64,000 nt of DNA from an uncultured Gammaproteobacteria bacterium (GTDB lineage: Bacteria > Patescibacteriota > Microgenomatia > Daviesbacterales > UBA10151). Position 1 is the stretch's first letter; each line of letters begins with the position of its first letter. The stretch lies in contig CAZAZW010000003.1 of the NCBI GenBank assembly GCA_964489875.1, positions 13,585 to 77,584 of the forward strand, read 5' to 3'. The translations under genes were made by a program, and so were the position numbers. The notes beneath the pieces were generated by a model. It did not search any database, had not been told where the DNA came from, and was given only the letters and a program-made list of their open reading frames with translations. Shown one piece after another: positions 17,532-37,603 of the stretch.

Positions 17532-17640
17532 CACAAAATCCTCCTACTCCCATAATACCGCAGAAACACCTGCCCTTGTCAAACTAAAACCTTAAAAAAC
17601 TATTTGCAATCAGCCCCAAGCAGTAGGATAATTAAGAAAT

Positions 17641-20217: not shown

Positions 20218-21636
20218 ATGCCGGAAAAACAACCATTTGACCTCCAACAAACGGTTAAAGGCATGTCTGATGCCGAACTTCAGCAATTTAACACTTGGTT
20301 AATTACAGAAAGATACCGAGTTCAGGCAAAAAAACTTCAAATTGATATGCCTCATGGAAATTTTATGCTTATGGATGGCAAAAAAGTTATTGACGACCTC
20401 CACCCAGATGGTGTTATCATCCCTCTTAATACTAATCCCCAGGAAGTAGAACCACGACTTAATCAAATGGGATCCTTCACTCAATATGTAGGTACTGTCA
20501 GTTTCGTTGGTCCGGATGGTAGATATTGGAAAGGAGTAGATTCTAGAGAGAATATCGAGGCTTTACAAAAGGCCTGTTATAACCCAGGATCAGTGTTTGT
20601 CTTTATAGGCGAAGACGGCAAATTTGCCGATCCGGCCGTACAAAAGGAATGGGAAACAATCCTTCATCCTCTTCCACAAGTTTCTGAGGAATCAAGATCA
20701 GCAAAGGAGGCTGAAAAACGCCAAGAATTAAAAGAAAGCCTTACTAAAAACTTAACCAGCGATTTCCGGGAAGAAGAGGATGGATTTGTACTGGAAACAG
20801 GGTCTTTCAAAGGGTATAAAATCTCCAGAGCTTTTCGGGGTGGAGCTCATGGGTATATCTATTATGCACAAACACCGGCGGGAGAACCGGCAATAATAAA
20901 AGTCGCAAAGGAATCCGCTAGTAAACCTTACTATCTTACTCTCCAAGAAACTAATCAAATCGAATACGCTGTTTTGGAGCATACCAGTAAACTTCTTGCA
21001 GAACACTATATGGCACCTCTTGTATCTATTCCGATAGCTTTTGACACCACCTCCTATTCCAATGCTGCTTTTAGTGAAAGTTTAATGCCGGGGGAGGCAG
21101 CATCCGATTTAATACAAAATGGGAGCAAGTACCCTCCGGAGGTTATCTTAAAAAATATATTCCGCATTAGTGAATTAGGAAATCTTTTGGCGGGAAAGGC
21201 ATTTCAATTGACATTACGAGATGAAGCCGTGCAGTTGGAAGTTTCCCTGGAAAGGGACCGTCGTCCGGATACAATCTTTTTAGACCCTAAAACCGGCGAG
21301 CTGACCGGCATCATTGATTTTTCCACTTCCGCCTATTACACAAAAGATTATGATTACTTACTAAAACATGCTTCCTCATCTCTTCCTTATCAATCTGAGG
21401 AATACACAAGGGCCGAGGAAAGAAGGAAACAATTGGAAATAAGGACACTGGAGGGTATTATGCGCCATGACTCTGAGAGAGGCGGAGTTAAAAGTATGGG
21501 CCTTATGGCTGAAAGATTATCCCGAATGGAAGAAGCTACTCCGGAAATCAGAAGCCTGTTTGAAAGGATGGCCGCCGGCCAAATACCTAACTTTGTGGCA
21601 GTCTACCAGGAGATAGTCAACCAAGGCTTGATTTAG
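20218..21636 (+). CDS. Protein with a C-terminal protein-kinase-like (ePK/APH-fold) domain
   Basis: Gly-rich loop FRGGAHGYIYYA; Lys motif PAIIKVAK; catalytic-loop-like ERDRRPDTIFLD; DFG-like IIDFSTS. Confidence 0.65.
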   Translation: MPEKQPFDLQQTVKGMSDAELQQFNTWLITERYRVQAKKLQIDMPHGNFMLMDGKKVIDDLHPDGVIIPLNTNPQEVEPRLNQMGSFTQYVGTVSFVGPDGRYWKGVDSRENIEALQKACYNPGSVFVFIGEDGKFADPAVQKEWETILHPLPQVSEESRSAKEAEKRQELKESLTKNLTSDFREEEDGFVLETGSFKGYKISRAFRGGAHGYIYYAQTPAGEPAIIKVAKESASKPYYLTLQETNQIEYAVLEHTSKLLAEHYMAPLVSIPIAFDTTSYSNAAFSESLMPGEAASDLIQNGSKYPPEVILKNIFRISELGNLLAGKAFQLTLRDEAVQLEVSLERDRRPDTIFLDPKTGELTGIIDFSTSAYYTKDYDYLLKHASSSLPYQSEEYTRAEERRKQLEIRTLEGIMRHDSERGGVKSMGLMAERLSRMEEATPEIRSLFERMAAGQIPNFVAVYQEIVNQGLI

Positions 21637-22150: not shown

Positions 22151-25036
22151 ATGGCAGAACAAGTTTCTGAAAGTCCGTTAGTTGTTTTAGACCGGATTAA
22201 AGTCAACCAAAAACTGGGAGAGAACATGGATGTTCCGGGTGTACTTTCGGACGTTGGCCTGTTTGTCCAGATGGGAGTGACAAAGCTTCCCGAAACCTCC
22301 AAATATTTAAAAAACTTTGGCCTTCAAAAAAACGTTCGGACAACCTTACTTTATAGAATCCGTGAAGGCTACCAACGAAAAGATACAAAAGGAGTTTTGC
22401 AGGATTTATCCATTGCCGAAGCTATCGGCATGAGCGAAATGCCGGAAGTTGCACCCTATCTTTCTTACATCCAAACTAACCTCCAAAACAAATTCCGAGA
22501 ACCGGCACCCAAAAAAGCTGCAGTAAAAAAACCAAAACAGCGCCATTTAAAAAGAAAGCTTGCCCTGGCTGCCGCTACTGGCTTAGTTGCTTTTACCTCA
22601 CTTACAGGTTCAGGTGCCCCAATCACTAAAGCCCTAGACGATCTATTACATAAACAAAACACTACCCAAGCAAGCTCCAGAGAAGAAACCGCAGCAGAAA
22701 CAGGGACTACGTCTGAAACAAAAGAAGTATCTACCAGTCCGGATTTTCAGCAGCTGATCAAACCTTTTGTAGATGAAGCCATGAAAAGACGGGCTGAACG
22801 GGCAGCCAATGACCCCGAATACTACAACCGAGTAGATAAAGAGCTCAACCAGGACCGGGTTAACATTCTTCTCTACGGATATGGTGAGGAATGGAAAGGT
22901 GGGGAAGATATGGATCAACCGACTTTTGGATCTCACTCCATCTTCTCAATCAACTTAAAATCCGGCAAAATCGATCTTGTTTCTCCAACTCACGACACCC
23001 GGGCTCCGGAAATCGAACAGTTCCTGAAGAAAAACGGAAAAGAAGCGCGTCCGACCAGAATAGACCGGGCATATGATATCGGCGGGTATGATCTGATGCG
23101 GCAGGTGTTGGAAGATGCAACCGGTCTTTCAGTTGATTATCAAATCAGGGCTGAAGATACTCTTATCAAATATCTCGTTGATAATCTCGGCGGTATCAAT
23201 GTTGATATCCCTTTTAATGTAAATACAAAGCAGTTCCGTGACGACGGAAAGATGTATCCTCCGCACCAGTTCTCTAAAGGATCTCAGAAAATGGATGGTA
23301 TTACGGCTCTCCAATTTATTAAAGCCTGGTCAGACCCGGTTGATCCTGCCAAAGAGCGCAATATCCGAAAACATCTGGCGATGAAAGCCATATTTGATCA
23401 GGTCAAACAAAAAACAAAAGAGGGAGATCGGATGTTTGGTATTAACATGTTTTCTCTTCTGGCCACTGAAAACCTGAAGGGCAATATCGGATTTGATTTT
23501 GATGAAAAGCAGTTTATCTTTCCAGTGCTGGGAAATTTGGGAAAGCTGGGAAAATTGGATCTTTCTATAGAAAAAACCATCTTTGTAGTAGACCCGGCCA
23601 TCGGCGACGGGGGAGTTCAGTGGATCACTGCCAATGCTGCTGAAAATCCTATCACCCAAAAAGATATTGAAAATGGTGTATATGGCCAAGACTTGGCTAT
23701 GGAGATTCCTTTCAATGCCAATCCCTACTCATCAAATCTGGTGCGCGATTATTGGAAATCTGTCAGGGATTTGATAAGCAGCCGACTCGGCAAACCCCAA
23801 CAACCAACAGTAGGTAAACCAGAACCTGCTCCTCCAGCCGCCACTCCAACCTCATCACCATCTCCTTCTCCAACTGCCAGCCCGACACCGACTCCCACCA
23901 AAACACCGGAACCAACACCTACACCTGAAATCAAAACCTTTAAAAAAGATATCTTCAGGGAACAAATCGCCCCGATTATTTATAAAAAAATAGAGAGAAT
24001 CAGAGCTGAGCGGGAAGCCAATGACCCCGAATATTACCAAAGAATCAATAAAGAATTAAACAATGGGAAAATCAACATCTTAATTACCGGCGGCAGAGAA
24101 GATGATGATTTAACGGATTCTATTCAACTGTTTTCCTGGGATCCTGCCACTAATTCTCTCTATGTCATCTCTATCCCCAGGGATCTGCAATCCCCTGAAG
24201 TTTTGCAGAAGACAAAAAGCCAAATTGATTCTAAAATAAATCAGGCCACCCATTTCACCGCCAACACTGATCTGTTAAAACTAGCTGTGGAAAATGCCAC
24301 CGCCTTATCAGTTGACATGTACATGCATGTAGGTTTTAGCGCCTTTGAAGATACTATAAACAAGACAGTAAAAACGGTTGACGTTGAACTGGATAAGGAC
24401 ATTGTCGATAATGCCTACCCAACCGAAGATAATTGGTACAAGCGAATTGAATACCGAAAAGGTCCCAATAAACTAACCGGAGAGCAGGCTTTGGAAGTAG
24501 TCAGAACCAGACATATCGACAATGACTACGAAAGGTCTAAAAGGCAACAGATGATCATTGAAGCTTTAATAAAGAAGATACTATCTGATAATTTTTTCAA
24601 CCAGTTCAGTCATTTATCTACTTTAAGGGATATCTGGTATGAAGATGTCAAGGGCAAAAGCACCATCAAACCGGATTTTGATTTAGATGATCTATTTTTC
24701 AACGACTTAGGGCGTTTAGCACAAAAAATTCCGCAGATGGCTTGGGCCAAGCTTTCTGGGCAAGCCAAAATGGCCGAAATTCCGACCATTTTTACAACCG
24801 GCTTAACCAATAGAAACTTTGTGGTGGGAGCCGGTATTATAAGAAAAGACGGCACAGAAAGCTACAACACCAAAATTAGCGGTGGCAATCCCAATACTAA
24901 CAACCCCAGAAAAGATTATTGGGCTAAATCCCGAAATTTCGTCGACAACTTTATTAAAGGAAATGCCGGTGAACCACCTGAAGAGGAAGAGATTCAAATA
25001 GAGATCCCTACAAATTCAGAAAATCCAACCTCTTAA
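22151..25036 (+). CDS. Membrane protein with two tandem LytR-CpsA-Psr (LCP) domains
   Basis: Cytoplasmic N-domain and one TM (LALAAATGLVAFTSL). LCP1 begins VNILLYGYG ... and LCP2 begins INILITGG..SIPRDL... A PT-rich linker separates them. Confidence 0.8.
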   Translation: MAEQVSESPLVVLDRIKVNQKLGENMDVPGVLSDVGLFVQMGVTKLPETSKYLKNFGLQKNVRTTLLYRIREGYQRKDTKGVLQDLSIAEAIGMSEMPEVAPYLSYIQTNLQNKFREPAPKKAAVKKPKQRHLKRKLALAAATGLVAFTSLTGSGAPITKALDDLLHKQNTTQASSREETAAETGTTSETKEVSTSPDFQQLIKPFVDEAMKRRAERAANDPEYYNRVDKELNQDRVNILLYGYGEEWKGGEDMDQPTFGSHSIFSINLKSGKIDLVSPTHDTRAPEIEQFLKKNGKEARPTRIDRAYDIGGYDLMRQVLEDATGLSVDYQIRAEDTLIKYLVDNLGGINVDIPFNVNTKQFRDDGKMYPPHQFSKGSQKMDGITALQFIKAWSDPVDPAKERNIRKHLAMKAIFDQVKQKTKEGDRMFGINMFSLLATENLKGNIGFDFDEKQFIFPVLGNLGKLGKLDLSIEKTIFVVDPAIGDGGVQWITANAAENPITQKDIENGVYGQDLAMEIPFNANPYSSNLVRDYWKSVRDLISSRLGKPQQPTVGKPEPAPPAATPTSSPSPSPTASPTPTPTKTPEPTPTPEIKTFKKDIFREQIAPIIYKKIERIRAEREANDPEYYQRINKELNNGKINILITGGREDDDLTDSIQLFSWDPATNSLYVISIPRDLQSPEVLQKTKSQIDSKINQATHFTANTDLLKLAVENATALSVDMYMHVGFSAFEDTINKTVKTVDVELDKDIVDNAYPTEDNWYKRIEYRKGPNKLTGEQALEVVRTRHIDNDYERSKRQQMIIEALIKKILSDNFFNQFSHLSTLRDIWYEDVKGKSTIKPDFDLDDLFFNDLGRLAQKIPQMAWAKLSGQAKMAEIPTIFTTGLTNRNFVVGAGIIRKDGTESYNTKISGGNPNTNNPRKDYWAKSRNFVDNFIKGNAGEPPEEEEIQIEIPTNSENPTS

Positions 25037-25060: not shown

Positions 25061-27148
25061 ATGGATTTGAAAACTTCACTCTCAGGTCTTACCGGAATTG
25101 GACCCGGGCTTTCATACAGGCTCAAAAGGCTCAATTTAAATACTATTGAGGACTTAATTTACCACTTTCCTTTTAGGTATGATGACTTTTCTAATACCAC
25201 TTCAGCCCTGGATGCCAAGATAGGGGAGAATGTAACGCTGCAAGGGGAGATTTGGTCTATCCAGAATATTTTTACCAGGTCCAGAAAAATCATCACCAAA
25301 GCCGTATTTAATGACGGCACCTCACCAATAGAGTTAACTTGGTTCCACTCCTCTTGGCTGACTAAACAAATCCAGACAGGTGACAGACTACAGGTTTCCG
25401 GAAAAGTCAGCAAGTATAAAAATAAGCTTTCAATCATTGCCCCACGCTGGGAAAAACTCACCGAGACATTGACCCGCCGACCCACTGATATACCAACCAT
25501 CCATACTGGAAGGCTTGTGCCAATATACCCTGAAACAGAAGGCTTAAGCTCTAAATGGCTGCGGACAAAAATAGATAAACTACTGCCCCTGGTTATAGAT
25601 GAAATCAGCGATCCCTTGCCAAACCAAATCAGAAATGGGATGCTAACACTGACACAGGCCATTCAGCAAGTCCATTTTCCGGAAGATATACAGCAAGCAG
25701 AAAAGGCTAGGGAAAGATTGGGTTTTGACGAGCTGTTTTTTGTTTCGCTTGCTACCCAAAAAGCCCGCATGGAATGGAAGAAAAAACCCATATTGGAACC
25801 GTTAAAAATTAACCCAAAAGACGTCAAGGATTTTACTGATCATCTACCTTTTAAATTAACCGGCGCCCAAGAAAAGGTCTTAAAAGAAATCTTAGATGAT
25901 CTTAAAAAAGATCAGCCCATGAATAGGTTAGTACAAGGAGAGGTAGGCTCAGGGAAAACTGTAGTAGCCACCATTATTGCCTATTTAGTCCACAAAAATG
26001 GCTTGCGTACCTTATTTATGGCTCCGACGGAAATTCTGGCCTTCCAGCATTTTGAGACACTTTCCAAACTTCTCAAACCTTTTGGGGTAACAGTGGGAAT
26101 ATATACTGGGAGCAAGAAGAGTCAAGAGTCAAGAGTCAAGAGTCAAGGAAAAAAGAAATCTAGACTCTCGACTCTAGCGACTAGCCACTATTCTGACATC
26201 ATCATCGGCACCCATGCCCTGCTGTCCCAAAAGCTTGCCACTAACAATGTCGGGCTAGTCATTATCGACGAACAGCAACGCTTTGGAGTGGAACAAAGAA
26301 CTCTGCTTCGTTCCAAAGCCAAAATCCCGCATTTTCTGACTATGACCGCCACCCCGATACCCAGAACCGTAGCGCTAACTTTATATGGAGATTTGGATAT
26401 GTCGGTTATTGATGAAATGCCGGTGGGACGACAAAAAGTGAAAACATATCTTGTCCCGGAAAAAAAGAGGCAGGATTCTTATAAATTTATCGCCAAAAAA
26501 GTAGCAGCGGGGGATCAAGTCTATATCATTACGCCCTTAATCGAAGCTTCGGAAACTTTAATCACGGTGAAGGCCGCCAAAGTGGAATTTGAGAAACTTA
26601 AAAAAGTATTCCCCACTTTTAGCCTGGATTTACTCCACGGCAGGATGAAAGGAGCTGATAAAGATGCTGTTATCAAAAATTTCCGCTCCGGACAAACGGA
26701 CATCCTGGTTTCCACTTCCGTAGTTGAGGTGGGCATGGATAACCCCAATGCCACCATTATTGTAATTGAAGGGGCGGAGAGATTCGGCCTGGCCCAGCTT
26801 CATCAACTTCGAGGAAGAGTTGGCAGAGGAGAAAAGCAGTCTTATTGCCTGCTTTACACATCAAATTTCTCAAGTGACGAAAGCAGGCGCCTGAAATATC
26901 TGGAAACTACTTTTGACGGCTTGAAGCTCGCTGAGTTAGATTTAAAAATCCGCGGCAGCGGGGAGATCTTTGGAACTATGCAGTCAGGTAGGTTTGAATT
27001 TAAAATTGCCAGTTTCAGCAATATCACACTGCTTGAAAAAACCAGGCAAGCAGCCAAAGAATTATTGGTCATAGATCCCACCCTTGACAAACACCCGCTG
27101 CTCAAGGCAAAATTACAGGATATCGCATCAGAAGTGATGCCTGATTAA
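25061..27148 (+). CDS. recG: ATP-dependent DNA helicase RecG
   Basis: 695 aa. Wedge domain, GEVGSGKTVVA, DEQQRFGV, TATPIPRT, QLRGRVGRG. Confidence 0.93.
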   Translation: MDLKTSLSGLTGIGPGLSYRLKRLNLNTIEDLIYHFPFRYDDFSNTTSALDAKIGENVTLQGEIWSIQNIFTRSRKIITKAVFNDGTSPIELTWFHSSWLTKQIQTGDRLQVSGKVSKYKNKLSIIAPRWEKLTETLTRRPTDIPTIHTGRLVPIYPETEGLSSKWLRTKIDKLLPLVIDEISDPLPNQIRNGMLTLTQAIQQVHFPEDIQQAEKARERLGFDELFFVSLATQKARMEWKKKPILEPLKINPKDVKDFTDHLPFKLTGAQEKVLKEILDDLKKDQPMNRLVQGEVGSGKTVVATIIAYLVHKNGLRTLFMAPTEILAFQHFETLSKLLKPFGVTVGIYTGSKKSQESRVKSQGKKKSRLSTLATSHYSDIIIGTHALLSQKLATNNVGLVIIDEQQRFGVEQRTLLRSKAKIPHFLTMTATPIPRTVALTLYGDLDMSVIDEMPVGRQKVKTYLVPEKKRQDSYKFIAKKVAAGDQVYIITPLIEASETLITVKAAKVEFEKLKKVFPTFSLDLLHGRMKGADKDAVIKNFRSGQTDILVSTSVVEVGMDNPNATIIVIEGAERFGLAQLHQLRGRVGRGEKQSYCLLYTSNFSSDESRRLKYLETTFDGLKLAELDLKIRGSGEIFGTMQSGRFEFKIASFSNITLLEKTRQAAKELLVIDPTLDKHPLLKAKLQDIASEVMPD
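26119..26184. repeat. Heptamer-periodic hairpin (GAGTCAA x4 ... TAGACTC TCGACTC TAGCGAC) inside recG
   Basis: gagtcaagagtcaagagtcaagagtcaagg-aaaaaagaaatc-tagactctcgactctagcgactag. Confidence 0.8.
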
Positions 27149-27151
27149 CCT

Positions 27152-27346
27152 ATGGCAGGAGAACCGAAGAGGAGACATTCTAAAGCGCAAAAGCGAACCA
27201 GAAGAGCTGCAATTAAATTGGCAGTTAATTTAGTAACCTGTAAAAACTGCGGTAAATTAACCGTGCCTCACACTGTTTGCAAAGAGTGTGGATTTTACGG
27301 CGGCAAGGCTGTCACCAAAGAAAAAGTCCAAGTCACTCGCGCATGA
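27152..27346 (+). CDS. rpmF: Ribosomal protein L32
   Basis: 64 aa. RRHSKAQKRTRRA and CKNCG..CKECG zinc ribbon. Confidence 0.9.
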   Translation: MAGEPKRRHSKAQKRTRRAAIKLAVNLVTCKNCGKLTVPHTVCKECGFYGGKAVTKEKVQVTRA

Positions 27347-27708
27347 AGAAAAAATCTGACCCCCGGCACTTAAAAAGAGCCAAGCTCATGCAAGAGCTAT
27401 TCTCCTGGCAATTTAAACCCGATCAAAAACCAGCTCTAGAGATCCAGGAAATAATTTCTAAGTTGTCCAAAATCGATCAGTTAATTACCAAATCTGCACC
27501 TGATCGGCCAATTGACCAAATCAATAAAGTTGATTTAGCTATATTGCGTCTGGCAGTTTTTGAGATTATATTAGATAAAGGGGCACCTCCAAAGGTAGTC
27601 ATTGATGAGGCGGTGGAGTTAGGAAAAGAGTACGGTTCCGACTCATCAGCCAGTTTTATCAATGGAGCCTTGGGGAAACTGCTTGAAATAAAGAAAATCA
27701 AAACTTAA
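27343..27708 (+). CDS. nusB: Transcription antitermination factor NusB
   Basis: Start at the ATGA overlap with the rpmF stop. DLAILRLAVFEIIL, IDEAVELGKEYGSDSSASFINGALGKL. Confidence 0.85.
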   Translation: MKKKSDPRHLKRAKLMQELFSWQFKPDQKPALEIQEIISKLSKIDQLITKSAPDRPIDQINKVDLAILRLAVFEIILDKGAPPKVVIDEAVELGKEYGSDSSASFINGALGKLLEIKKIKT

Positions 27709-27945
27709 ATGAACACTGAAACAAAAATCATTCAAGCAATAGCAGAACATTTGGGTCTTTCTATAGAAGACCTAGACAGACATGCGCTTCTTAGAGAGGA
27801 ATTGAATTTAGGCCCAATTGAACTGCATGATCTGCTTTCCGATTTGTCCCAAAAGTTTGATGTCACTCTTAATCCTGAAGAGGTAGAAGATTTGAAAAGG
27901 ATAGACGATATAATTGTTCTTATTGAAGATAATTTATTAGACTAA
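27709..27945 (+). CDS. Acyl-carrier-protein-like four-helix protein lacking the phosphopantetheine-attachment Ser
   Basis: 78 aa of ACP length and pattern. The DSL site reads LGPIEL. Its position upstream of rnc matches acpA in Firmicutes. Confidence 0.6.
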   Translation: MNTETKIIQAIAEHLGLSIEDLDRHALLREELNLGPIELHDLLSDLSQKFDVTLNPEEVEDLKRIDDIIVLIEDNLLD

Positions 27946-28634
27946 TGCCAAACAATGATTTTACACAACTTCTCCGCCTGCTTGATATAAACTTCAAAGA
28001 TCCAAAACTTCTGCAGCAAGCTTTCTTACACAGATCCTATCTAAATGAAGTAAAAGTAGATATGCAATCTAATGAGCGCTTAGAATTCCTAGGTGATTCG
28101 GTTTTGTCCCTGGTTATCTCTTATTATCTCTATATTCAAAGAGGTGCGGACTCCGAAGGAGAATTAACCAACCTCCGGGCTCATATAGTTAAAACCAAAT
28201 CTCTCGCAGAAGCTGCAAAAAGACTTCAACTGGGAGAGTATTTGAAACTTTCCAAAGGGGAAGAGATTTCGGGAGGCAGAAACAACCCCCAGCTTCTGGC
28301 AAATACTTATGAAGCACTGCTGGGAAGCATATTTTTAGACCAGGGTTTAGAAGCCACCAAAAAAGTTGTTGATAAAACATTGCTGCCATTTTTTGAGCAA
28401 GAACTAAAAATAGGGCCACCCAAAGATGCCAAATCTTCTTTGCAGGAAATAGTCCAACAAAACTTAAAGGAGTCACCACATTACAAAATTTTGAAAACCG
28501 CCGGTCCTGATCATGCTAAACAATTTACTGTAGCCGTATACATTGGAGGAAAAGAAATGGGACTGGGCACAGGTAACAGCAAACAAGTCGCTGAAGAAAA
28601 AGCAGCCAAACATGCTTTACAGCAGTTGACTTAA
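27945..28634 (+). CDS. rnc: Ribonuclease III
   Basis: ERLEFLGDSVL signature plus a C-terminal dsRBD. Confidence 0.92.
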   Translation: MPNNDFTQLLRLLDINFKDPKLLQQAFLHRSYLNEVKVDMQSNERLEFLGDSVLSLVISYYLYIQRGADSEGELTNLRAHIVKTKSLAEAAKRLQLGEYLKLSKGEEISGGRNNPQLLANTYEALLGSIFLDQGLEATKKVVDKTLLPFFEQELKIGPPKDAKSSLQEIVQQNLKESPHYKILKTAGPDHAKQFTVAVYIGGKEMGLGTGNSKQVAEEKAAKHALQQLT

Positions 28635-28661: not shown

Positions 28662-29132
28662 ATGCTAAAAATACGATTAATGCGAATCGGTGCCAAGAAG
28701 AAACCATTCTACCGGGTGGTAGTAGTTGATGAGAGGGCAAAAAGAACCGGAGCCTACATTGAACTCTTGGGTACTTACAATCCCTTAACAGAACCAAAAG
28801 ATATTAAACTAAAGCAGGATAGAATTGATTACTGGATCAAACAAGGAGCAAAGCTTAGTACAGGATATCTTAGAATAATCGGCAAAGCCCCCCAAAGGCC
28901 ACCCAGAAAGCCTAAGAAAGAAAAGAAAACAGAAGAACCAGTAAAAACTGAAGCAACTCTGGCAAACACCTCGGATGGTGGCGCCGAAGGCGACTCCTCC
29001 GAGGTGAATAAGGCTGAAGAAACTATTCAGAAAGACTCAGAAAACTCAGATAGCCAGAATGTCGGAGGATCTGATCAATCCGATACTCCGAGTCCTTCCG
29101 AGTCTTCTGAAAACGAAAGCGAATCCAAATGA
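28662..29132 (+). CDS. rpsP: Ribosomal protein S16 with a long acidic Ser-rich C-terminal tail
   Basis: MLKIRLMRIGAKKKPFYRVVVVDERAKRTGAYIELLGTYNP. Confidence 0.9.
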   Translation: MLKIRLMRIGAKKKPFYRVVVVDERAKRTGAYIELLGTYNPLTEPKDIKLKQDRIDYWIKQGAKLSTGYLRIIGKAPQRPPRKPKKEKKTEEPVKTEATLANTSDGGAEGDSSEVNKAEETIQKDSENSDSQNVGGSDQSDTPSPSESSENESESK

Positions 29133-29413
29133 AAGACCTCTTAAACTTTATAGTCACCAATTTAGTCACCAAACCGGAAGCTGTAGTAATTGATGAGCAA
29201 AAGGAAGAGGGAGTAGTCAATCTGAATCTTACAGTTGATCCTAGCGATATGGGACTAATTATTGGTAAAAGCGGGCAAACAATCAGGGCTATTAGAAAAC
29301 TTTTAACAGTTAGGGCAATTGCTGAAAATATCAGAGTCAGCGTTCAACTGACCGAACCCCCTGGAGAGCTTAGAGTCGAAAGTCAAGAACCAAGTGCAGA
29401 ACCTGCTTCTTAA
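29129..29413 (+). CDS. KH-domain RNA-binding protein (YlqC/UPF0109 type)
   Basis: GLIIGKSGQTIRAIRKLL, and a position between rpsP and trmD. Confidence 0.85.
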   Translation: MKDLLNFIVTNLVTKPEAVVIDEQKEEGVVNLNLTVDPSDMGLIIGKSGQTIRAIRKLLTVRAIAENIRVSVQLTEPPGELRVESQEPSAEPAS

Positions 29414-29441
29414 CTGCTAGACTCCCAGCGCCCAGACTCTA
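29366..29441. repeat. GAGTC-type hairpin spanning the KH gene 3' end, its stop codon and the trmD start codon
   Basis: Left arm gagcttagagtcgaaagtcaagaac and right arm ctagactcccagcgcccagactcta. tagagtc and gactcta pair perfectly. Confidence 0.55.
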
Positions 29442-30142
29442 TGAAATTTTCTATCATCACTTTATTTCCAGAAGTCTTTGAACCCATATTCAACTCTTCC
29501 ATACTGAAACGAGCCCAAAAAAAGGGTTTGGTTGAGTTTGAATTAATTAACCTGCGTGATTTTGGCAAAGGAAAACACAAGATAGTTGATGACAGGCCGT
29601 ATGGCGGCGGAGCAGGAATGGTGCTGAAAGCTGATATACTAACTAAAGCACTCAAAAGCATTGCCCCCAAACTACCAACTACCAGCTACCAACTACTTAC
29701 TATCTTAATGTCCGCTTCAGGACAACCCTACAAACAAACAAAGACAAAAGAATTTTCTAAACTAGATCATCTAATCATTGTATGTGGCCACTATGAGGGA
29801 GTAGATCAAAGATTTATTGACAAATATATTGACGGCGAAATCTCCATTGGGGATTATGTATTAACAGGTGGTGAAATCCCGGCCATGGTGATTGTTGATT
29901 CCATTACCAGGTTAATTCCAGGGGTTTTAGAAAAACCTGAGGCCACCGTTAATGAATCTTTTTCCGAAGGACTGCTGGAGTATCCCCAATACACCAGACC
30001 GGAAGAATTTGAAGGGAAAAAGGTCCCGGAAGTTTTATTGTCAGGAAATCACGCCGAAATAAACAAATGGCGCCTGGAAAAATCTCTGGGAAAGACTAAA
30101 AAGGTTAGGCCCGATTTACTAAAATCTACTCGAATGGATTAG
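29441..30142 (+). CDS. trmD: tRNA (guanine37-N1)-methyltransferase
   Basis: 233 aa. IITLFPEVF, DDRPYGGGAGMV, GHYEGVDQR, SIGDYVLTGGE. Confidence 0.92.
   Translation: MKFSIITLFPEVFEPIFNSSILKRAQKKGLVEFELINLRDFGKGKHKIVDDRPYGGGAGMVLKADILTKALKSIAPKLPTTSYQLLTILMSASGQPYKQTKTKEFSKLDHLIIVCGHYEGVDQRFIDKYIDGEISIGDYVLTGGEIPAMVIVDSITRLIPGVLEKPEATVNESFSEGLLEYPQYTRPEEFEGKKVPEVLLSGNHAEINKWRLEKSLGKTKKVRPDLLKSTRMD
29672..29696. repeat. Tandem heptamer CTACCAA/CTACCAG x3.5 inside trmD
   Basis: ctaccaactaccagctaccaactac, encoding LPTTSYQL. Confidence 0.6.
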
Positions 30143-30830
30143 ATTTGCCTCTGGAAGACTCAATTGCTGAAGAGCTTGAAGGAGCATAAATCATTTGTCC
30201 CAACTCTTCAAGTCTCAAAATTAACTCCTTATCTTTTTGACTAAGTTCAGGCAGGGGAGAATCTACTCCACCGAAATCCTTAGGCAACTGCGCATATAAG
30301 GCTTCTACACCTAAAGTTGATTCGAAAAGTTGAGAATTTCCTTTAGATGAAGCATCAATGCTATTTACCCTCACTAATCGGGGCGAACTTTCTAGATTAT
30401 CTAACAGAGTCTGAAAACTAGTTTTGGACCCCCTAATATCCAGTTTAACCTCGAAGTTACTTAAATTGGCTACTTTACTAGCAGCATTACTAAATGAGAT
30501 TGCATCGGCGCTAAATCCCGACTGTATAGTCAGCTGCTGCAATAATCCTAAGACATTTCCAAAATCTTTATCTGTAGGCAAAGTAGTTAGGATTATCCCA
30601 ACCTTGCTGGATAAATCTTCACCGTCGTAACCTTCCAGTGCCATAACTTTAGTTTCCAAAAATTGCGACCTTTTATTAAGATCGCTTAACGCATTCTGAT
30701 TATCAACCAATTTAATAATCTGCGGATAAATTACAAATATGATTAAAAAAAGGCTCGCTAGCGCAACTATTACCGGAAAAATTTGTGCCCTATGGGTTGA
30801 ATAAAATTTAATTAAGTCTTCTTTCTTCAT
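30126..30830 (-). CDS. PilO-like pilus assembly protein
   Basis: 234 aa with one N-terminal TM and a coiled coil. It lies immediately downstream of pilN with a 4-nt overlap. Confidence 0.5.
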   Translation of the reverse strand: MKKEDLIKFYSTHRAQIFPVIVALASLFLIIFVIYPQIIKLVDNQNALSDLNKRSQFLETKVMALEGYDGEDLSSKVGIILTTLPTDKDFGNVLGLLQQLTIQSGFSADAISFSNAASKVANLSNFEVKLDIRGSKTSFQTLLDNLESSPRLVRVNSIDASSKGNSQLFESTLGVEALYAQLPKDFGGVDSPLPELSQKDKELILRLEELGQMIYAPSSSSAIESSRGKSNPFE

Positions 30831-31372
30831 TTAGGTTTGATTGTTAAACTTCCCCTATAGAACCCATCTCTACCTCTATTGAGACTTTCTATTCCAATTA
30901 AACTAATCTTTTCCTCATTACTATCCCTGTTAGTAAAACTTTCTATCAGGTTATCCAGACTAGAAGCGTCCGGTACCAAAACTACCAACGTCACTTCACC
31001 AGTTTTATTTATAGATATGCCGTTTATAATGACATCCGGAGGAATCAATTTATCAATCAATTTATACATCAGAGATTGATTTGACGATACCCCCAAATAC
31101 TTATCAATTACAGTTATTCTATCTTTAAGAAGGATGAGGGCAGCTTGAGTATCTTTTAAGTCAGAAACCTGCTGCTCTGTCTCCGAAATCTTGGCCTGTA
31201 CCTCTGTAATACTGCGACTTTGTAAAATCCGAAGAGCCACAGTTAAAGAGGCTAGAAAAACCATAATCAGAATAACTATAATGCCGGCGAGTTGAATTCT
31301 ATAGAAATTCGCCTTTTTTAATTCCTTGGTTATGATCTCGGTTGGAAGTAAATTGATCGAGATTTTAGCCAT
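30827..31372 (-). CDS. pilN: PilN-like pilus assembly protein
   Basis: MAKISINLLPTEI followed by a TM segment and a coiled coil. Confidence 0.7.
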   Translation of the reverse strand: MAKISINLLPTEIITKELKKANFYRIQLAGIIVILIMVFLASLTVALRILQSRSITEVQAKISETEQQVSDLKDTQAALILLKDRITVIDKYLGVSSNQSLMYKLIDKLIPPDVIINGISINKTGEVTLVVLVPDASSLDNLIESFTNRDSNEEKISLIGIESLNRGRDGFYRGSLTIKPK

Positions 31373-31375
31373 AAT

Positions 31376-32410
31376 TTAATCCTCCCTTAAAGCCAGTCCC
31401 ACTGCAACAGAGTAAGAAGGGGCATCTTGGGCAAGACGTGCAATGGATTCTTTTTCTTTGATAATAGAATACCAAGGATCAGCCTCCTGAACTTCCAGTC
31501 CCAAAATATTTGCTAAATAAATTACAAGTCCCGGCATTTTTGCTCCGCCACCTGAAACAACTATTCTTTTGATAGGGTCAGAATATTTTGTCTGAAAAGC
31601 CTGAATAACCCGTCTAGCCTCACCTGTTATAATATCCACAACCGGCTTCAAAGCCTCAAATACCTTTCCTTCCAATTGATCTTCTGAAAGTCCATAAATC
31701 CTTTTGTATTGCTCTGCTTGAGCGACCTCGAAATTAAAATGTTGTGCTAATGATCTCGTGAGAGCCATACCACCGGTTGAGATTGAACGGGTCAACCATA
31801 TTAATCCTTTAGAAACTGTCGCAAAATCAGTCGTGGTAGCACCGAATTGTATAATTAAGGAACTAGGGGAGAAAGGATTGTTTCCGACTAAAGATCGTGT
31901 TACCGCAATTATCTCTGTTTCTAAAACCTTAGGATGAAGTCCCGCAAGATCCAACACCTTAAGATACTTAGCCACCACATTTTTGGGAGAAGCAATCACC
32001 AAGACTACCGTCTTCGTATTTTTTCCTTTGCTATCAGATCTCACCAAAACCTGCCAATTTAAATTGACCTCGCTTAAGGGCATGGGGATAAACTCTTCTG
32101 CGGCGTAACGGATAGTTGAAGCAAGCTCGTTATCGTTTAAATACGGTAAATCATCGATAATTCTGGTAAAAACTCTTGATTCAGGGAGTGCTACCACTAC
32201 ATCCTTTGTTTCAATCTTAACCGCTGCAAAGAGTTGTTTGATGGTATTTGATAGCGCCTCAAGATCTGAATCATTATCAGATAATATTCCCGGCTGCGGA
32301 GCAGGAATGGAACCTAATGAGACAAGCTTAAATTGATCCTTATCTTTTAGTAGTGCGACCACTTTAACTCCGGAAAAACCTATATCTAAACCAACAGTAA
32401 TCTTTGCCAT
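31376..32410 (-). CDS. pilM: Type IV pilus assembly ATPase-fold protein PilM
   Basis: Actin-like fold with VGLDIGFSGVKVVAL. The track start 32425 is GTG; an ATG lies at 32410. Confidence 0.85.
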   Translation of the reverse strand: MAKITVGLDIGFSGVKVVALLKDKDQFKLVSLGSIPAPQPGILSDNDSDLEALSNTIKQLFAAVKIETKDVVVALPESRVFTRIIDDLPYLNDNELASTIRYAAEEFIPMPLSEVNLNWQVLVRSDSKGKNTKTVVLVIASPKNVVAKYLKVLDLAGLHPKVLETEIIAVTRSLVGNNPFSPSSLIIQFGATTTDFATVSKGLIWLTRSISTGGMALTRSLAQHFNFEVAQAEQYKRIYGLSEDQLEGKVFEALKPVVDIITGEARRVIQAFQTKYSDPIKRIVVSGGGAKMPGLVIYLANILGLEVQEADPWYSIIKEKESIARLAQDAPSYSVAVGLALRED

Positions 32411-32459
32411 AGGCAGTCTAACCACTAAGGCTAGTCATAAATATTGTAAAACAAACTAT

Positions 32460-32568
32460 ACCCTAAATGCTACCCCGATCTCATCGGGGCAAGCTCTGCT
32501 TTAGATCCGAAGGATCACAAGCTCTGCTTATACCCTAAACCCTTAGGCGAAGCCGCAAGCTCCGCTTA
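32460..32568. repeat. Three tandem modules, each a short hairpin followed by CAAGCTCYGCTTW
   Basis: ccccgatctcatcgggg-caagctctgcttt; agatccgaaggatc-a-caagctctgctta; cttaggcgaagccg-caagctccgctta. ACCCTAAA is also duplicated. Confidence 0.7.
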
Positions 32569-34353
32569 TTTAACTTGGTACGTTCCTTTAACTAAAGAAT
32601 AAGACCCTGAGGGACCGGAAGAAAACAAAGTGCTGGATAAACCAGTTTCATAATCAATCACCGAACTATTGATTAACCTTATTCCCCAAGCTGTTAATTC
32701 CTTAAAAGAGTTACCCGTGCCTGGTTGGATAATACCGGTGTTAGCATAGTACACGCCGGTATTACCATTGCTGTTAACCAAGATTGCTGACTCAAGATCT
32801 ACCCGAGAATCATAAGTTGTAAGAGCCATTAGTAAACTGCTACCAACTCCAGTCCCATTTAGGCGATTATAGCTGTTCATTTCAATTTTTCCATCAACTA
32901 TAATTACACCAGAAGCTTGCCCATAGCTCGAGTCAAGGGTCAAAATATTGTTACTGTTTAAAAACAATGAACCGGTAATCCAGATCGGGGTCTTTACGGT
33001 AACCCTGCATCCGCTGTTAAAAGTGACATTACCCACTATTTTTATCGGACCCAAGATATTAACACACTCAGTAATATCACCAACTAATGTTGTTTCTGGT
33101 TTATCAACCTGGCTCTTCCAATCTGCTATATTAGCACTAGATATGGGAAATACTTTAGGCGGCGGATCAGCAGAACCCGGGTAAGAATTACCTGATACTG
33201 TCGAGGTAATTAGAGTTTGATAGTAGGCATCTTTGGCAACAGCTAAATTCTCAATTGTATTAGCATGAACTTCACCCTCAACAGTCATTTTATTGGATCC
33301 TGCCCTGACTGACGTAGGTGCTCCACCCAAATACGTCTTAAAACTTAAATCTCCGTCTGGGTGAAATGAGTTCCAAGTGGGATTTCCGGTTGACCAATTT
33401 GGAGACCATTTAGGTAACCCTCCGAGATAACCTTGGGCCAGATCATTTTGCCATGACCAATAATTACTTGCATCTTGTGAGGTATCAACTACTATCCAGT
33501 AGGTAGTATCCTGGGTTAAGACAGGAGAGGAGTTAAATGTGATATCAGTCCACCCATAAGCCGAAGTTACCAAACTACTATAAAGAGTGCCCGTTGTTAA
33601 AACTTCGTTTTTATCGGGTTTCCCGCTTTCTTCTTGCATAATCCTGACTGTAATGTCAGACGGACTACCGACCTTTTTTACCTTTATGGAAATTTTATTT
33701 AACACTCCGCTGTTGTCTGATTTAAAACTTTGAGCAACATCTAAGCGAGCCTGACCATCAACAGTTCTACCAAAGAAAAAGTCTTGGCAATTGCTATCTA
33801 TACAGTCAGTCTGTTGATCGGCTACAAGTTGCGGGCCACCAGCTACCCAAACATCCCCGGTTACGATGTTGCTGTTCCCGGCTGTAATATTTCCGTTCGA
33901 ATATATTGACCCTTTGACCAAATTAGTGTTACCTAACTCAAGTCCTCCTTCTCCCACTTGTATACCATAATTAAAAGCTATACCAACACCTCTTGAAGCA
34001 GTAACCTTAACTGTCCTTTTGGCCCTAGCGTTAGCCTTGCTTGGTATATACCCTGTTGCTTGAATTACCTTGGTAGCCGCATTTGTAGAGGTAATATTAA
34101 CAGAGTATGATCCGTCTCCAAAAACAGTTTCTGTTTCACCATTATAGCTTCCGGCGGTTTTGTTTAACGATGCTAACGCCTTATCTACTCCTGCCTCAGC
34201 TAAACCTAAGGCTTTTTCGCCATTTGTAGAATATGAGGCATTTTGGAAATAGACTTGCGCTCCACTAATCACAAACAGAACAGTAAAAAGCACTACTCCT
34301 AAAGCAATGAAGACTAAAATCAGCATTTGACCCGATTGATTTAACTTAATCAT
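32566..34353 (-). CDS. Large pilus-associated protein (PilX_N-like hydrophobic N-terminus, beta-helix-like repeats)
   Basis: MIKLNQSGQMLILVFIALGVVLF; GSIYSNGNITAGNSNIVTGDVWVAGG. The start is taken at ATG 34353, giving an 8-nt overlap with the upstream gene. Confidence 0.65.
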   Translation of the reverse strand: MIKLNQSGQMLILVFIALGVVLFTVLFVISGAQVYFQNASYSTNGEKALGLAEAGVDKALASLNKTAGSYNGETETVFGDGSYSVNITSTNAATKVIQATGYIPSKANARAKRTVKVTASRGVGIAFNYGIQVGEGGLELGNTNLVKGSIYSNGNITAGNSNIVTGDVWVAGGPQLVADQQTDCIDSNCQDFFFGRTVDGQARLDVAQSFKSDNSGVLNKISIKVKKVGSPSDITVRIMQEESGKPDKNEVLTTGTLYSSLVTSAYGWTDITFNSSPVLTQDTTYWIVVDTSQDASNYWSWQNDLAQGYLGGLPKWSPNWSTGNPTWNSFHPDGDLSFKTYLGGAPTSVRAGSNKMTVEGEVHANTIENLAVAKDAYYQTLITSTVSGNSYPGSADPPPKVFPISSANIADWKSQVDKPETTLVGDITECVNILGPIKIVGNVTFNSGCRVTVKTPIWITGSLFLNSNNILTLDSSYGQASGVIIVDGKIEMNSYNRLNGTGVGSSLLMALTTYDSRVDLESAILVNSNGNTGVYYANTGIIQPGTGNSFKELTAWGIRLINSSVIDYETGLSSTLFSSGPSGSYSLVKGTYQVK

Positions 34354-34969
34354 TCCGTAAATTTGCTTCCGATGTGCCGGTTTGTACCTCAAAATTTAAG
34401 CCATTTTTCTGCTTTAGAGTTAGGGTAATCCTTACTTTAGCAGCATTCAGAGGAGTAACTTCAACCGGCGGATTAGCAGAATTAAAGTATTGAAAATTCA
34501 CGCTTTCAGCCATATTCGAAAGAATTCGATCCGCCAGCTTTCTTGAGCTTGCAGGATCCGGAAAAATCTTAAAGTGAAGTAGATTTTGATCCAGAAAGAA
34601 AACAAAGTAATCGAAAGTATTATCAATAATATTGCCTGAAGAATCTTCCGATAAAACCTTTAAAACAAGCTGACTGAGACCGCTAACATATGTAGATCCA
34701 CCGCCGGTGTAATTCTCGGCTACTGCGTTTGCCTCCTTAATACTGCTTCTAACTTGTAATAAAACATCATTGATATTTAAACCCTGCTGCACCTTTGAAG
34801 ATTGTTCCGTAAATAGGCCGGCGCTGTTTACCATGATCACAACCAGGAGCACTCCAGCCACCGTCGCTATCCCCATCGCTACTAGGACTTCAATAAGAGT
34901 TAAGCCCTTTCTGCGATTGACAATTTTTTTAATAATTTTCCATTTTCCATTGTCAATTTTCCATTTCAT
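34346..34969 (-). CDS. Prepilin-type (class III signal) minor pilin
   Basis: A 22-aa leader ending in RRKG, followed by LTLIEVLVAMGIA. Confidence 0.75.
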   Translation of the reverse strand: MKWKIDNGKWKIIKKIVNRRKGLTLIEVLVAMGIATVAGVLLVVIMVNSAGLFTEQSSKVQQGLNINDVLLQVRSSIKEANAVAENYTGGGSTYVSGLSQLVLKVLSEDSSGNIIDNTFDYFVFFLDQNLLHFKIFPDPASSRKLADRILSNMAESVNFQYFNSANPPVEVTPLNAAKVRITLTLKQKNGLNFEVQTGTSEANLRND

Positions 34970-35397
34970 TGATTAATCCCTCCTTCACCAATCATAGTTG
35001 TAAAAGAAACTGTTTGCAGCTTTGCATTATCTTGCCAAAGAACTGTTACCGTAACCACCTTAATATTTTCCCCCTGAGTACAGATTGCAGGGTCACAATC
35101 CGTAACTTCCACTGTTCCGCTACCTTGGGGAATCAAATTTAAACGCGTGTCAGAAATAGGAGAATTATCATTTACCAAGTTGCTATAATTTATTGCCCTT
35201 TTGTCCTCAATCTGTTTAACAGCAATCTCTCTTGCCAAACTCTCATGTCTGCTTTTGCCAATCAGCATCAAGGCATTAGGAATGTTTGCAACAAGAAACA
35301 CCACTGATCCGATAATGGCTACAACTAGCAGGGCTTCGATCAATGAAAAACCACTTTGGCTCCTTAATTTTGACTTTTGACATTTTACTTTTGACAT
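34966..35397 (-). CDS. Prepilin-type minor pilin
   Basis: ...SQSG followed by FSLIEALLVVAIIG. Confidence 0.75.
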   Translation of the reverse strand: MSKVKCQKSKLRSQSGFSLIEALLVVAIIGSVVFLVANIPNALMLIGKSRHESLAREIAVKQIEDKRAINYSNLVNDNSPISDTRLNLIPQGSGTVEVTDCDPAICTQGENIKVVTVTVLWQDNAKLQTVSFTTMIGEGGINQ

Positions 35398-35398
35398 T

Positions 35399-36361
35399 TT
35401 ACTTATTTATGTCGCCGGCAGAAAAAATGGCATAGTCAAAATAGGGGGGGACTACGTTCTCAAACTGGCAGACTTGGATCTTTCTTTGTGTCTGGCCGGA
35501 AGTACCTGTGGATACTAATATCTTAGCTTGAGTCGGTATACAACCACTTGTATTATCATTTTCTCTGCAGACGCTTCCGGCGGCAGCTCGTACTGCAAAT
35601 GGTTGACTTTTTGAGCTATACAAAAGCCTGGCACGAAGCAGTATTAAAGTTGAAGGCGAAGAAGGCAAGGATCCTCCCGGATCACTTGAGCTTCCAAGCG
35701 TATACTGACATTGATATTCCGGTAACTCAGGGATGCCGCCATTGCAAAGCACTTTTTCAAAGCCATTATTTGTAGCCCTGGTAGCCGATAGATGGTCAAG
35801 ATACCATTTGCGGCTTCGGTACTTTGGTGTTGATCCATCAACTAAATCCGTAGGATCTGTTCCATAATAAACTATGGTTACTTCTAAAGCAGCCTTGTCA
35901 TTGTTGTCAGAAGAATCTCCCCAATAAACATCAAGACTGGTCTGTTTATAGCAATAATCAGTAGCGCTACACGTTGGCAGATTTAGCTTTGGATCTGCCA
36001 GCCAAATTTGGGCTATATCTTCTTTAGCAAACTCGGATCCGCCGAGAGAGCATTTGATAGGGTCCTGGCGCCGAGGGGTCTCAAACGAAGCAGGAATTGC
36101 CGGTATTGCCTCATTTTTATTTACCTCCGCGCTGGAATTGTTATCCGGAAAAGAGACGGTTATTAAATTGTTATTTCTTGGTTCGCTTAATGCTTTCTCT
36201 ATTCCCGCCTCAGCTGCTGAGAAAGCTCTGGAAGATTGCTCGACTTTTGAAGAGGTTGATATATCAGACAGTGAACGTTGAATAACTGATAAACCAATCG
36301 CCAAAGCCACAGTCATTACTAAAATTAATATTAAAATCACTTGGCCTTTTTGGCTTCTCAT
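35399..36361 (-). CDS. PilX_N-like pilus protein
   Basis: MRSQKGQVILILILVMTVALAIGL, with no Glu at position +5. 320 aa. Confidence 0.6.
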   Translation of the reverse strand: MRSQKGQVILILILVMTVALAIGLSVIQRSLSDISTSSKVEQSSRAFSAAEAGIEKALSEPRNNNLITVSFPDNNSSAEVNKNEAIPAIPASFETPRRQDPIKCSLGGSEFAKEDIAQIWLADPKLNLPTCSATDYCYKQTSLDVYWGDSSDNNDKAALEVTIVYYGTDPTDLVDGSTPKYRSRKWYLDHLSATRATNNGFEKVLCNGGIPELPEYQCQYTLGSSSDPGGSLPSSPSTLILLRARLLYSSKSQPFAVRAAAGSVCRENDNTSGCIPTQAKILVSTGTSGQTQRKIQVCQFENVVPPYFDYAIFSAGDINK

Positions 36362-36395
36362 ATAATTATTATAATCATTATAACCGTTATAATCA

Positions 36396-37010
36396 TTATC
36401 TCAGTTGCACAGTTGTTTGAAACACTACCGGATCAATTTGGCCTCTAATGATATCCGGCGCCCCGATGGGCGGTCCCAGTTGAAATTTAATAGTGACGCT
36501 ATCTTTTGAACCGGGTAGGGGATTCCTGGTGAAAAAATTTGACCCAGGAACGTTTTGAACCGAAACACCGGTTTGAAGATTATCATCAGTAAGATTCTGT
36601 ATGGAATTAGGAGCAGCATATCTTCCCATCGGATCCGTACAGATACCTTCAAGGAATATTGTAATATCACTTTCTTCAGATTGAAGCGGAGAATCTTGTT
36701 GAATCAATCCGTTATTAATTCCCCAAGCAATTATTCTATAACGCGTATAGTTACCATTCTTCACAACCACTAAAGTATCATCTTCGCTTGCAGATCTACC
36801 GGTACAAACAACATTATCCGCCTCTCTGACAGTTTTATCCATATTTTCTAAAACCGCTTGGCCGTTTTGCTTGATATTAGCCAAAATTTGCGATTTATTA
36901 CTGCCCCGCAGGGTATTGGTGAAAATCGCCACCATTATTGTCCCGATAATGGCAGTTATGGCTATCACTACTAACAGCTCAGCTATTGTAAAACCGCTTT
37001 CTGCTTTCAT
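36396..37010 (-). CDS. Prepilin-type minor pilin
   Basis: MKAESG followed by FTIAELLVVIAITAIIG. Confidence 0.8.
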   Translation of the reverse strand: MKAESGFTIAELLVVIAITAIIGTIMVAIFTNTLRGSNKSQILANIKQNGQAVLENMDKTVREADNVVCTGRSASEDDTLVVVKNGNYTRYRIIAWGINNGLIQQDSPLQSEESDITIFLEGICTDPMGRYAAPNSIQNLTDDNLQTGVSVQNVPGSNFFTRNPLPGSKDSVTIKFQLGPPIGAPDIIRGQIDPVVFQTTVQLR

Positions 37011-37603
37011 AACTTTCTAAGGATTGTTACCAGCTTTGATTCACGCGTTCCTGCAAAATCAGTCCACCTCACAATCACTGTAACTGTTTTTTGAACCTGA
37101 TAGGAGGGAACTGTAGTTCCATCAGCAAGTCTGACAGTGGAAGAATTATCCGACAAAATTACCACTCTTTTGAATTGACCAATCGGTTTGGCCCGCGATG
37201 GAATAGAAGAAGCGACACCAAGATACTGCAGACTGCCATAGTTATCGTCAGAGCTATCAATGTTAAAATAACAATAGGTTGGGGAGGGATCGGAATTACC
37301 ACAGTTACCGCTTATTTGATAATCCCACAGAGCTCCGGGACAGGGACTGGCATCTCCATTCCATGAACCAATACAATTTCCGCCTATCTGTAAATTGTCT
37401 GTTATCGCAGAACTTCTGTCTCTTCCTGACCTGACTGTTTCTATCCCTTCTTGAGCCAGCTTTGTGGCTTGAGCTGCTGTTTTGGCATAATTGGCATTTC
37501 TAAGAGAATAAATAGTGGCAAAAGTTAAAGCCGAAACTACCAGAATCCCCACAGTGGCAGCTATTATCACCTCTGCCAAACTTTGACCCCTCTCATCGCC
37601 CAT
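37007..37603 (-). CDS. Prepilin-type minor pilin
   Basis: MGDERG followed by QSLAEVIIAATVG. ATG 37603 is preceded by an AAGGAGG SD; the track start 37624 is TTG. Confidence 0.7.
   Translation of the reverse strand: MGDERGQSLAEVIIAATVGILVVSALTFATIYSLRNANYAKTAAQATKLAQEGIETVRSGRDRSSAITDNLQIGGNCIGSWNGDASPCPGALWDYQISGNCGNSDPSPTYCYFNIDSSDDNYGSLQYLGVASSIPSRAKPIGQFKRVVILSDNSSTVRLADGTTVPSYQVQKTVTVIVRWTDFAGTRESKLVTILRKL

Follow-up and report, generated by a model that had tools for sequence, protein, structure and literature searches.

The locus raises a simple question: why should an acyl carrier protein (ACP) be encoded between nusB and rnc if it lacks the serine to which the phosphopantetheine arm is attached? 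The window considered here, i.e., the whole stretch of 64 kb that was analysed, contains an open reading frame of 78 aa on the forward strand that begins with ATG at 27709 and ends with TAA at 27943-27945. It is referred to below as acpX, for a serine-less coding sequence with the ACP fold. A sequence-only reading of this DNA had proposed the gene order recG - rpmF - nusB - X - rnc - rpsP - KH - trmD, which is borne out by the ORFs and their Pfam matches (Table 1). To judge by close homologues, the DNA comes from a Candidatus Daviesbacteria bacterium (CPR/Patescibacteria, Microgenomates).

Table 1. Position and supporting evidence of acpX, its neighbours, the sites discussed within it and the two fatty acid synthesis genes of the window.
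Feature	Coordinates	Strand	Evidence
FabH	1488-2504	-	NCBIfam NF006829, 309 bits (cut-off 249); catalytic Cys/His/Asn present
FabF	2563-3921	+	NCBIfam NF005589, 412.8 bits (cut-off 387); catalytic Cys/His/His/Lys present
recG	25061..27148	+	Pfam RecG_wedge, DEAD, Helicase_C, RecG_dom3_C; upstream anchor of the conserved block
rpmF (ribosomal protein L32)	27152..27346	+	Pfam Ribosomal_L32p, 70.9 bits
nusB (121 aa, pI 9.4)	27343..27708	+	Pfam NusB, 79.7 bits
acpX (serine-less ACP-fold CDS)	27709..27945	+	ORF, Pfam PP-binding, AF2, Foldseek, dN/dS, charge
Gly35-Pro36-Ile37 codons of acpX, at the Asp-Ser-Leu attachment motif	27811..27819	+	Gapless alignments to ACPs
Helix II of acpX (residues 36-50), the ACP "recognition helix"	27814..27858	+	DSSP on the AF2 model
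rnc (RNase III)	27945..28634	+	Pfam Ribonucleas_3_3, 128.6 bits, and dsrm
rpsP - khpA (KH) - trmD	28662..30142	+	Pfam Ribosomal_S16, KH_KhpA-B, tRNA_m1G_MT

The genes of this block are tightly packed. Only 3 nt separate the recG stop from rpmF, the ATG of nusB overlaps the TGA stop of rpmF (ATGA junction), the TAA of nusB directly abuts the ATG of acpX (TAA-ATG junction), and the ATG of rnc overlaps the stop of acpX (TAATG junction). The latter overlap is consistent with translational coupling of acpX and rnc, and the touching or overlapping codons together with the tight packing suggest that acpX is co-expressed with nusB and rnc. Promoter- and terminator-like sites within recG..rnc occur at the counts expected from shuffled sequence, and no convincing internal promoter or terminator was found there. 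Rfam and ARAGORN detected no RNA gene anywhere in the 64-kb window, which speaks against an RNA gene or other feature at acpX on either strand, and an antisense ORF of 44 aa (27732-27866) is unsupported. As an observation apart, nusB and acpX lie in one reading frame (27343-27942, +) interrupted by a single TAA codon, read-through of which would yield a fusion of NusB with the ACP-like protein.

The flanks of the block hold features of their own. Upstream of recG lies a gene for a 961-aa protein with two LytR-CpsA-Psr domains and a Pro/Thr/Ser-rich linker between them (22151-25036, +), in the place of which a related genome (L001) carries a single-domain version of 436 aa. Directly downstream of trmD follows a 16-kb type IV pilus cluster (30126-45937, -) comprising PilO/N/M, a DUF7305-like protein of 608 aa, about ten prepilin-type (N_methyl) genes, a prepilin peptidase, PilC and two PilB/PilT ATPases; PilM/N/O genes convergent on khpA or trmD are also found in the distant loci L038, L039, L041, L043 and L046. 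Elsewhere in the window, four ORFs of 494, 672, 857 and 472 aa (12207-13691, -; 15516-17534, -; 17641-20214, +; 20218-21636, +) remain unmatched in Pfam and NCBIfam at E <= 1e-5, and in an 829-aa protein of the Mur ligase family (50842-53331, -) the Mur ligase domains are confined to the part beyond residue ~500, the ~500 aa before it being without a Pfam match.

That the product of acpX is ACP-like, as had been proposed from the sequence, is confirmed by profile, sequence and structure comparisons. Its score of 25.3 bits (E 1.9e-5) on the Pfam PP-binding profile (PF00550) exceeds the gathering threshold of 20.8, the match spanning residues 6-69 and model positions 2-64 of 67. The NCBIfam housekeeping ACP equivalogs (TIGR00517, NF002148-NF002151 and others) match it end to end but stay at 16-35 bits against cut-offs of 65-106, the best score being 34.8 bits against 71 and that of TIGR00517 23.6 against 70.45. 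Searched with phmmer against PDB sequences, the protein retrieves almost exclusively ACPs, in gapless alignments. Its AlphaFold2 (AF2) model, built on an alignment of 25 sequences (pLDDT 91.4, pTM 0.79), has helices at residues 3-15, 36-50, 56-59 and 65-77 according to DSSP, which is the four-helix ACP fold, and the best 50 Foldseek matches listed against the PDB are all ACPs (TM 0.72-0.91, rmsd 1.2-2.0 A), 48 of them at E <= 0.001, rather than proteins of an unrelated fold. The protein is also polyanionic, with a pI of 4.2 and a net charge of -14 compared to 4.05 and -15 for E. coli ACP, and it retains the ACP core residues L15, G16, D31-L32, L42, L46 and F50. Helix II of the model starts at the attachment position, residue 36, and keeps both a hydrophobic face (I37, L42, L46, F50) and the acidic residues E38 and D41. 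Among close homologues E38, L42, L46 and F50 are invariant columns and D41 is nearly so, and both E38 and D41 are nearly invariant in distant family members, too.

The attachment site itself is gone. In a holo-ACP, the serine that receives the arm is conserved within a (D/N)S(L/I) motif where helix II begins, and acpX has no such conserved residue. G35-P36-I37 aligns without gaps under D35-S36-L37, both in HMMER alignments to solved ACPs and in MAFFT alignments with the E. coli and Clostridium tetani proteins, which agrees with the earlier claim that the phosphopantetheine serine is lost and that Pro/Ile occupy the Asp-Ser-Leu site. A misaligned serine is rejected, since the core is gapless in HMMER and MAFFT, both of which place Pro36 at the attachment position, and since helix II of the AF2 model begins at that residue. 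Homologues consistently lack the serine as well. Among 100 close homologues of 78 aa, G35 is present in all 100, P36 in 99 (the remaining one has Leu) and I37 in 96, and in the loci of 34 Daviesbacteria species position 36 is Pro in 32, Thr in one, Gln in one and Ser in none, which excludes a one-off mutation or a sequencing error. In a second Daviesbacteria sub-clade, recognisable by the C-terminus IEDKLLE, position 36 is P, A, R, L or rarely S, and over the family as a whole its variants include P, A, T, R, L, D, E, K and Q. Ser35 or Ser36 turns up sporadically in some sublineages, and Ser47 is nearly invariant within Daviesbacteria. No invariant Ser, Thr or Cys column exists in the family alignments, including those of the wider family that shares the nusB-X-rnc slot. 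Judged by these alignments, the loss of the serine is fixed in the acpX family. With GPI in place of DSL and no conserved Ser/Thr/Cys in the family, acpX is incapable of acting as a phosphopantetheinyl carrier of the conventional kind. Fold and ancestry of ACP are what is familiar about the protein; what is new is the absence of the attachment serine, a defining feature of a functional carrier.

Within Daviesbacteria, loss of the attachment site has not been accompanied by loss of constraint. The 34 Daviesbacteria loci were collected by a profile scan of genome contigs that returned Daviesbacteria only, and across these species the mean identity to the protein of the window is 67% for acpX, 68% for NusB, 70% for RecG and 72% for RNase III. 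Pairwise dN/dS of acpX (Nei-Gojobori, NG86) ranges from 0.04 to 0.23 with a median of 0.14 in the 45 pairs with dS < 2, and the gene keeps an intact frame and a length of 73-79 aa in the 34 species and in more than 300 metagenomic variants. acpX is under purifying selection and is not a decaying relic.

The position of the gene points to its origin. In a Bacillaceae locus (Pseudogracilibacillus, L049) the order is recG-fapR-plsX-fabD-fabG-acpA(DSLD)-rnc, continued after rnc by DUF1128-smc-ftsY-ylxM-ffh-rpsP-khpA-ylqD-rimM-trmD. The window is collinear with it, except that rpmF-nusB stands in place of fapR..fabG and that smc..ffh is missing; acpX lies between recG and rnc, with rpsP-khpA-trmD downstream and all genes on one strand. 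This collinearity makes acpX the positional orthologue of acpA, the housekeeping gene of Firmicutes, and the proposed synteny and ancestral acpA-rnc position, which had been put forward for Firmicutes in general, hold up in this direct comparison. A search of the literature found no paper giving the B. subtilis gene order of this region. In E. coli the cluster yceD-rpmF-plsX-fabHDG-acpP presumably puts rpmF in the same ancestral neighbourhood. On the evidence of gene order, the adjacency of acpX to rnc is ancestral and that to nusB derived. The linkage of acpX to rnc may accordingly reflect inherited history rather than function, since acpA-rnc also exists in Firmicutes with a normal holo-ACP.

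The association with nusB and rnc recurs among relatives. nusB is immediately upstream of acpX, and rnc follows it, in all 34 Daviesbacteria loci. When 1.84 billion cluster representatives were searched exhaustively with a profile, 737 matched at E <= 0.001, and in the best 150 of these 737, 113 of the 163 aligned domains have no Ser36 but P, E, K, T, D, A or others. The context was checked for eight distant serine-less members (P0151, P0227, P0382, P0417, P0421, P0209, P0226 and P0161) on non-Daviesbacteria contigs with CPR-like content. The distant X directly follows nusB in 8/8 loci and directly precedes rnc, in the order rnc-rpsP-khpA, in each of the seven that extend that far; recG-rpmF is usually found upstream, and start and stop codons often overlap. 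These X proteins are 30-36% identical to that of the window where they can be aligned, as compared to 44-58% for RecG, NusB and RNase III (42-55% over the RecG proteins of these contigs), and the faster divergence of X at this depth fits either a lineage-specific partner or weaker constraint. Going beyond the sequence-only reading, these comparisons indicate that the serine-less state and the nusB-X-rnc slot are common to lineages well outside Daviesbacteria. As a side note on taxonomy, twelve MAGs from binchicken and other co-assemblies that are titled "uncultured Gammaproteobacteria bacterium" (loci L011, L014, L018, L020, L021, L024, L028, L030-L033 and L035) carry the Daviesbacteria-type recG-rpmF-nusB-X-rnc block, with ACP-like proteins 56-74% identical to that of the window; the organism name they bear is apparently a placeholder or erroneous.

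The sequence-only reading also held that the lipid-synthesis genes had been deleted. This is true of the recG..rnc interval but not of the window, which contains intact FabH and FabF genes. They form a divergent orphan pair about 24 kb from acpX and unlinked to it, with a GT2 glycosyltransferase on one side and the F1Fo ATP synthase operon on the other, and their GC content equals that of the window. Both gene calls are also present in locus L047. A metagenome scan with FabF led to a single locus on a 1.02-Mb Daviesbacteria contig (L048, 8004-9359), where FabF is 82% identical and adjoins three GT2 genes, with no FabH beside it. The adjacent plsX, fabD, fabG and fabF of a type II FAS operon are absent around acpX, its neighbours being rpmF, nusB and rnc in the 34 Daviesbacteria and the 8 distant loci. 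Neither AcpS/Sfp (PF01648), FabD, FabG/Z/I and PlsX/Y/C nor a second PP-binding ORF is among the ORFs of at least 60 aa in the window, the search for AcpS/Sfp and a second carrier covering 64 kb of a genome of ~1 Mb, and phmmer with B. subtilis and E. coli AcpS sequences gave no match in six-frame translations of the window and L048. FabH and FabF normally require holo-ACP, in its malonyl and acyl forms, and the finding sharpens the puzzle of genomes that keep intact FabF and FabH with no usable carrier in view. CPR genomes have been surveyed that lack ACP synthase and the enzymes making or using ACP, and for CPR bacteria both lipid scavenging and incomplete FAS-II sets, minus the ACP-processing enzymes, have been proposed (PMC7242380).

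Two further gene pairs were noted in these regions. Beside the ATP synthase epsilon gene of the window lie two mutually unrelated carbonic-anhydrase-like genes (4372-5085, -; 5186-5548, +), matching PF18484 CDCA (cadmium carbonic anhydrase repeat) with 43.4 bits and Pro_CA_2 (PF20393) with 67.5 bits; L047 and L048 carry both genes as well, and one would not expect an enzyme of the CDCA type in a member of the CPR. Positions 355-1921 of L048, some 6 kb away from FabF, hold a PIN-domain gene together with one encoding a CAP12/Pycsar-effector TIR domain (PF10137, 130 bits); the two are possibly defence or toxin-antitoxin genes.

Several explanations of a serine-less ACP can be weighed against this background. 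Because intact FabH and FabF are encoded in the same genome, a lipid-related role of acpX has to be considered, in which it would serve lipid metabolism without a covalent arm, either as a non-covalent chaperone of fatty acids or lysolipids or by docking and activating the orphan FabH/FabF or acyltransferases that use CoA or acyl-phosphate thioester donors. The absence of any other carrier protein, FabD or AcpS near the pair, the vertical conservation of FabF in another Daviesbacteria genome and the retention in acpX of the acidic helix II residues with which ACP docks FAS enzymes would fit such a role, as would the scavenging lifestyle and partial FAS-II sets proposed for CPR (PMC7242380). 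It is nevertheless unlikely, given that FabH and FabF are unlinked to acpX in the window, that FabF lies in a different contig region in L048 and has no FabH at its side there, and that the conserved linkage in every lineage examined is to nusB and rnc. Moreover, untethered acyl chains bind ACP only weakly. Distinctly unlikely is the related idea that FabH and FabF are served by a canonical, serine-bearing ACP and an AcpS/Sfp encoded elsewhere, with acpX an additional, neofunctionalised copy and not the sole ACP. The normal need of both enzymes for malonyl- and acyl-holo-ACP speaks for it, as does the fraction of the genome represented by the window. On the other hand, acpX occupies the ancestral acpA slot, which marks it as the original locus and not a duplicate, and every Daviesbacteria protein among the matches that is named "acyl carrier protein" in its source belongs to the serine-less family. 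Published surveys of CPR genomes found no ACP synthase either (PMC7242380), and a second ACP would leave the role of the serine-less copy unexplained.

The remaining two explanations concern the protein itself. acpX might be a carrier of a non-canonical kind, loaded at another residue or by another transferase, for which the near invariance of Ser47 within Daviesbacteria and the scattered Ser35 or Ser36 could be cited; yet no Ser/Thr/Cys column is conserved across the wider nusB-X-rnc family, position 36 accepts residues as different as P, A, T, R, L, D, E, K and Q, and the 64-kb window contains no phosphopantetheinyl transferase, all of which makes this very improbable. The view of acpX as a relic, put forward in the sequence-only reading, would make it a functionless leftover of acpA that survives through its location in an essential operon. 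Apart from the loss of the catalytic serine and the sub-cut-off NCBIfam scores there is little to recommend it, and it is hardly credible in the face of a dN/dS of ~0.14, the preserved length and frame, a conservation on par with NusB, RecG and RNase III, and a confident fold retained across lineages whose RecG proteins are just 42-55% identical; a pseudogene is effectively refuted by the dN/dS values and the parity with the neighbouring genes. The other half of that proposal, a pantetheine-independent role, fares better, being the sole reading compatible with strong purifying selection in a family without a conserved Ser/Thr/Cys.

acpX is thus very probably a functional ACP derivative that works without pantetheine. 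Lacking the serine for the cargo arm, the protein must have a job other than that of a carrier, and a pantetheine-independent binding role is well supported. The best explanation for the locus, to which we give about an even chance of being right as a whole, is an adaptor derived from the housekeeping ACP that binds through helix II and probably acts with the co-translated NusB/RNase III module. According to this explanation, fatty acid synthesis would have been lost from the locus and acpX kept for a function of ACP that does not depend on the prosthetic group. Its helix II and polyanionic surface would dock onto a basic partner, and acpX would be a small stoichiometric subunit or regulator. 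The likeliest candidates for the partner are the co-translated RNA-handling proteins, namely the basic NusB, RNase III or nascent ribosomal components, which would place acpX in rRNA transcription, rRNA processing or ribosome biogenesis. Which of them it would be is guessed from operon structure, and an action together with NusB/RNase III in particular is put forward tentatively, as a possibility with less than even prospects.

Several known systems may be compared. With the housekeeping ACP of type II FAS (AcpP/AcpA; PF00550, TIGR00517), acpX shares the length of 78 aa, the four-helix fold, the acidity, the conserved core and the acidic helix II, and with the Firmicute acpA it shares the slot between recG and rnc. 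It differs from them in having GPI for DSL and no conserved serine, in scoring below the NCBIfam cut-offs, and in being flanked by rpmF-nusB instead of fapR-plsX-fabD-fabG. A small ACP-related protein with a role outside FAS is known in TIGR04069 (ocin_ACP_rel, "peptide maturation system acyl carrier-related protein"), of which acpX is not a member, as it scores 15.9 bits against a cut-off of 70 (E 0.014) and has no peptide-maturation genes around it. In mitochondria, ACP is a subunit of complex I, of LYRM protein complexes and of the mitoribosome assembly module MALSU1-L0R8F8-mtACP. That it serves there as a small adaptor of structural kind, ribosome biogenesis included, may be seen as a parallel to the ribosome and RNA-processing operon of acpX; however, the mitochondrial contacts require that an acyl-phosphopantetheine enter the LYR partner, which is impossible for acpX. 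Apo-ACP reportedly also takes part in the synthesis of membrane-derived oligosaccharides, as described by Therisod and Kennedy. The closest functional analogy is E. coli MukB, the ATPase of which is stimulated equally by apo- and holo-AcpP, a precedent for apo-ACP as a structural cofactor and for the arm-independent partner binding proposed here (Prince et al., 2021, PMC8602292). The analogy has its limits, since E. coli AcpP is at the same time the holo lipid carrier whereas in acpX the carrier function has been abolished genetically, since the partner of acpX is a candidate only, and since the lineage of acpX uses an SMC-type and not a MukB-type condensin. Searches of the literature on ACP in CPR and on ACPs lacking the serine found no description of a serine-less ACP, in CPR or elsewhere.

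In public databases these proteins go by the name of "acyl carrier protein" or "hypothetical protein". Automatic annotation with the former name inflates the apparent capacity of CPR bacteria for lipid synthesis, which knowledge of the partner would correct. Beyond annotation, ACP is among the most connected hub proteins of bacteria, and its arm-independent interactions are hard to separate from the others because ACP is essential for lipid synthesis. Here, a radiation of ultra-small bacteria has kept the fold, the charge and the recognition helix of ACP while the attachment site and the fatty acid genes of the locus are gone, which amounts to a natural separation of the two. Identifying the partner would reveal a case of ACP moonlighting, possibly one that links ribosome and RNA processing to the old rpmF-pls-fab-acp-rnc cluster. 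A bolder and rather unlikely proposal is that ACP already had a pantetheine-independent role in rRNA transcription, rRNA processing or ribosome assembly in the ancestor of CPR and Firmicute-like bacteria, and that this would be the sole role to survive in the CPR Microgenomates, where fatty acid synthesis was lost from the locus. The NusB/RNase III machinery would then have acpX as an obligate stoichiometric subunit or as a regulator. If true, this would be the first bacterial counterpart of the use of mitochondrial ACP in ribosome biogenesis, and acpX would be a natural "separation-of-function allele" of ACP.
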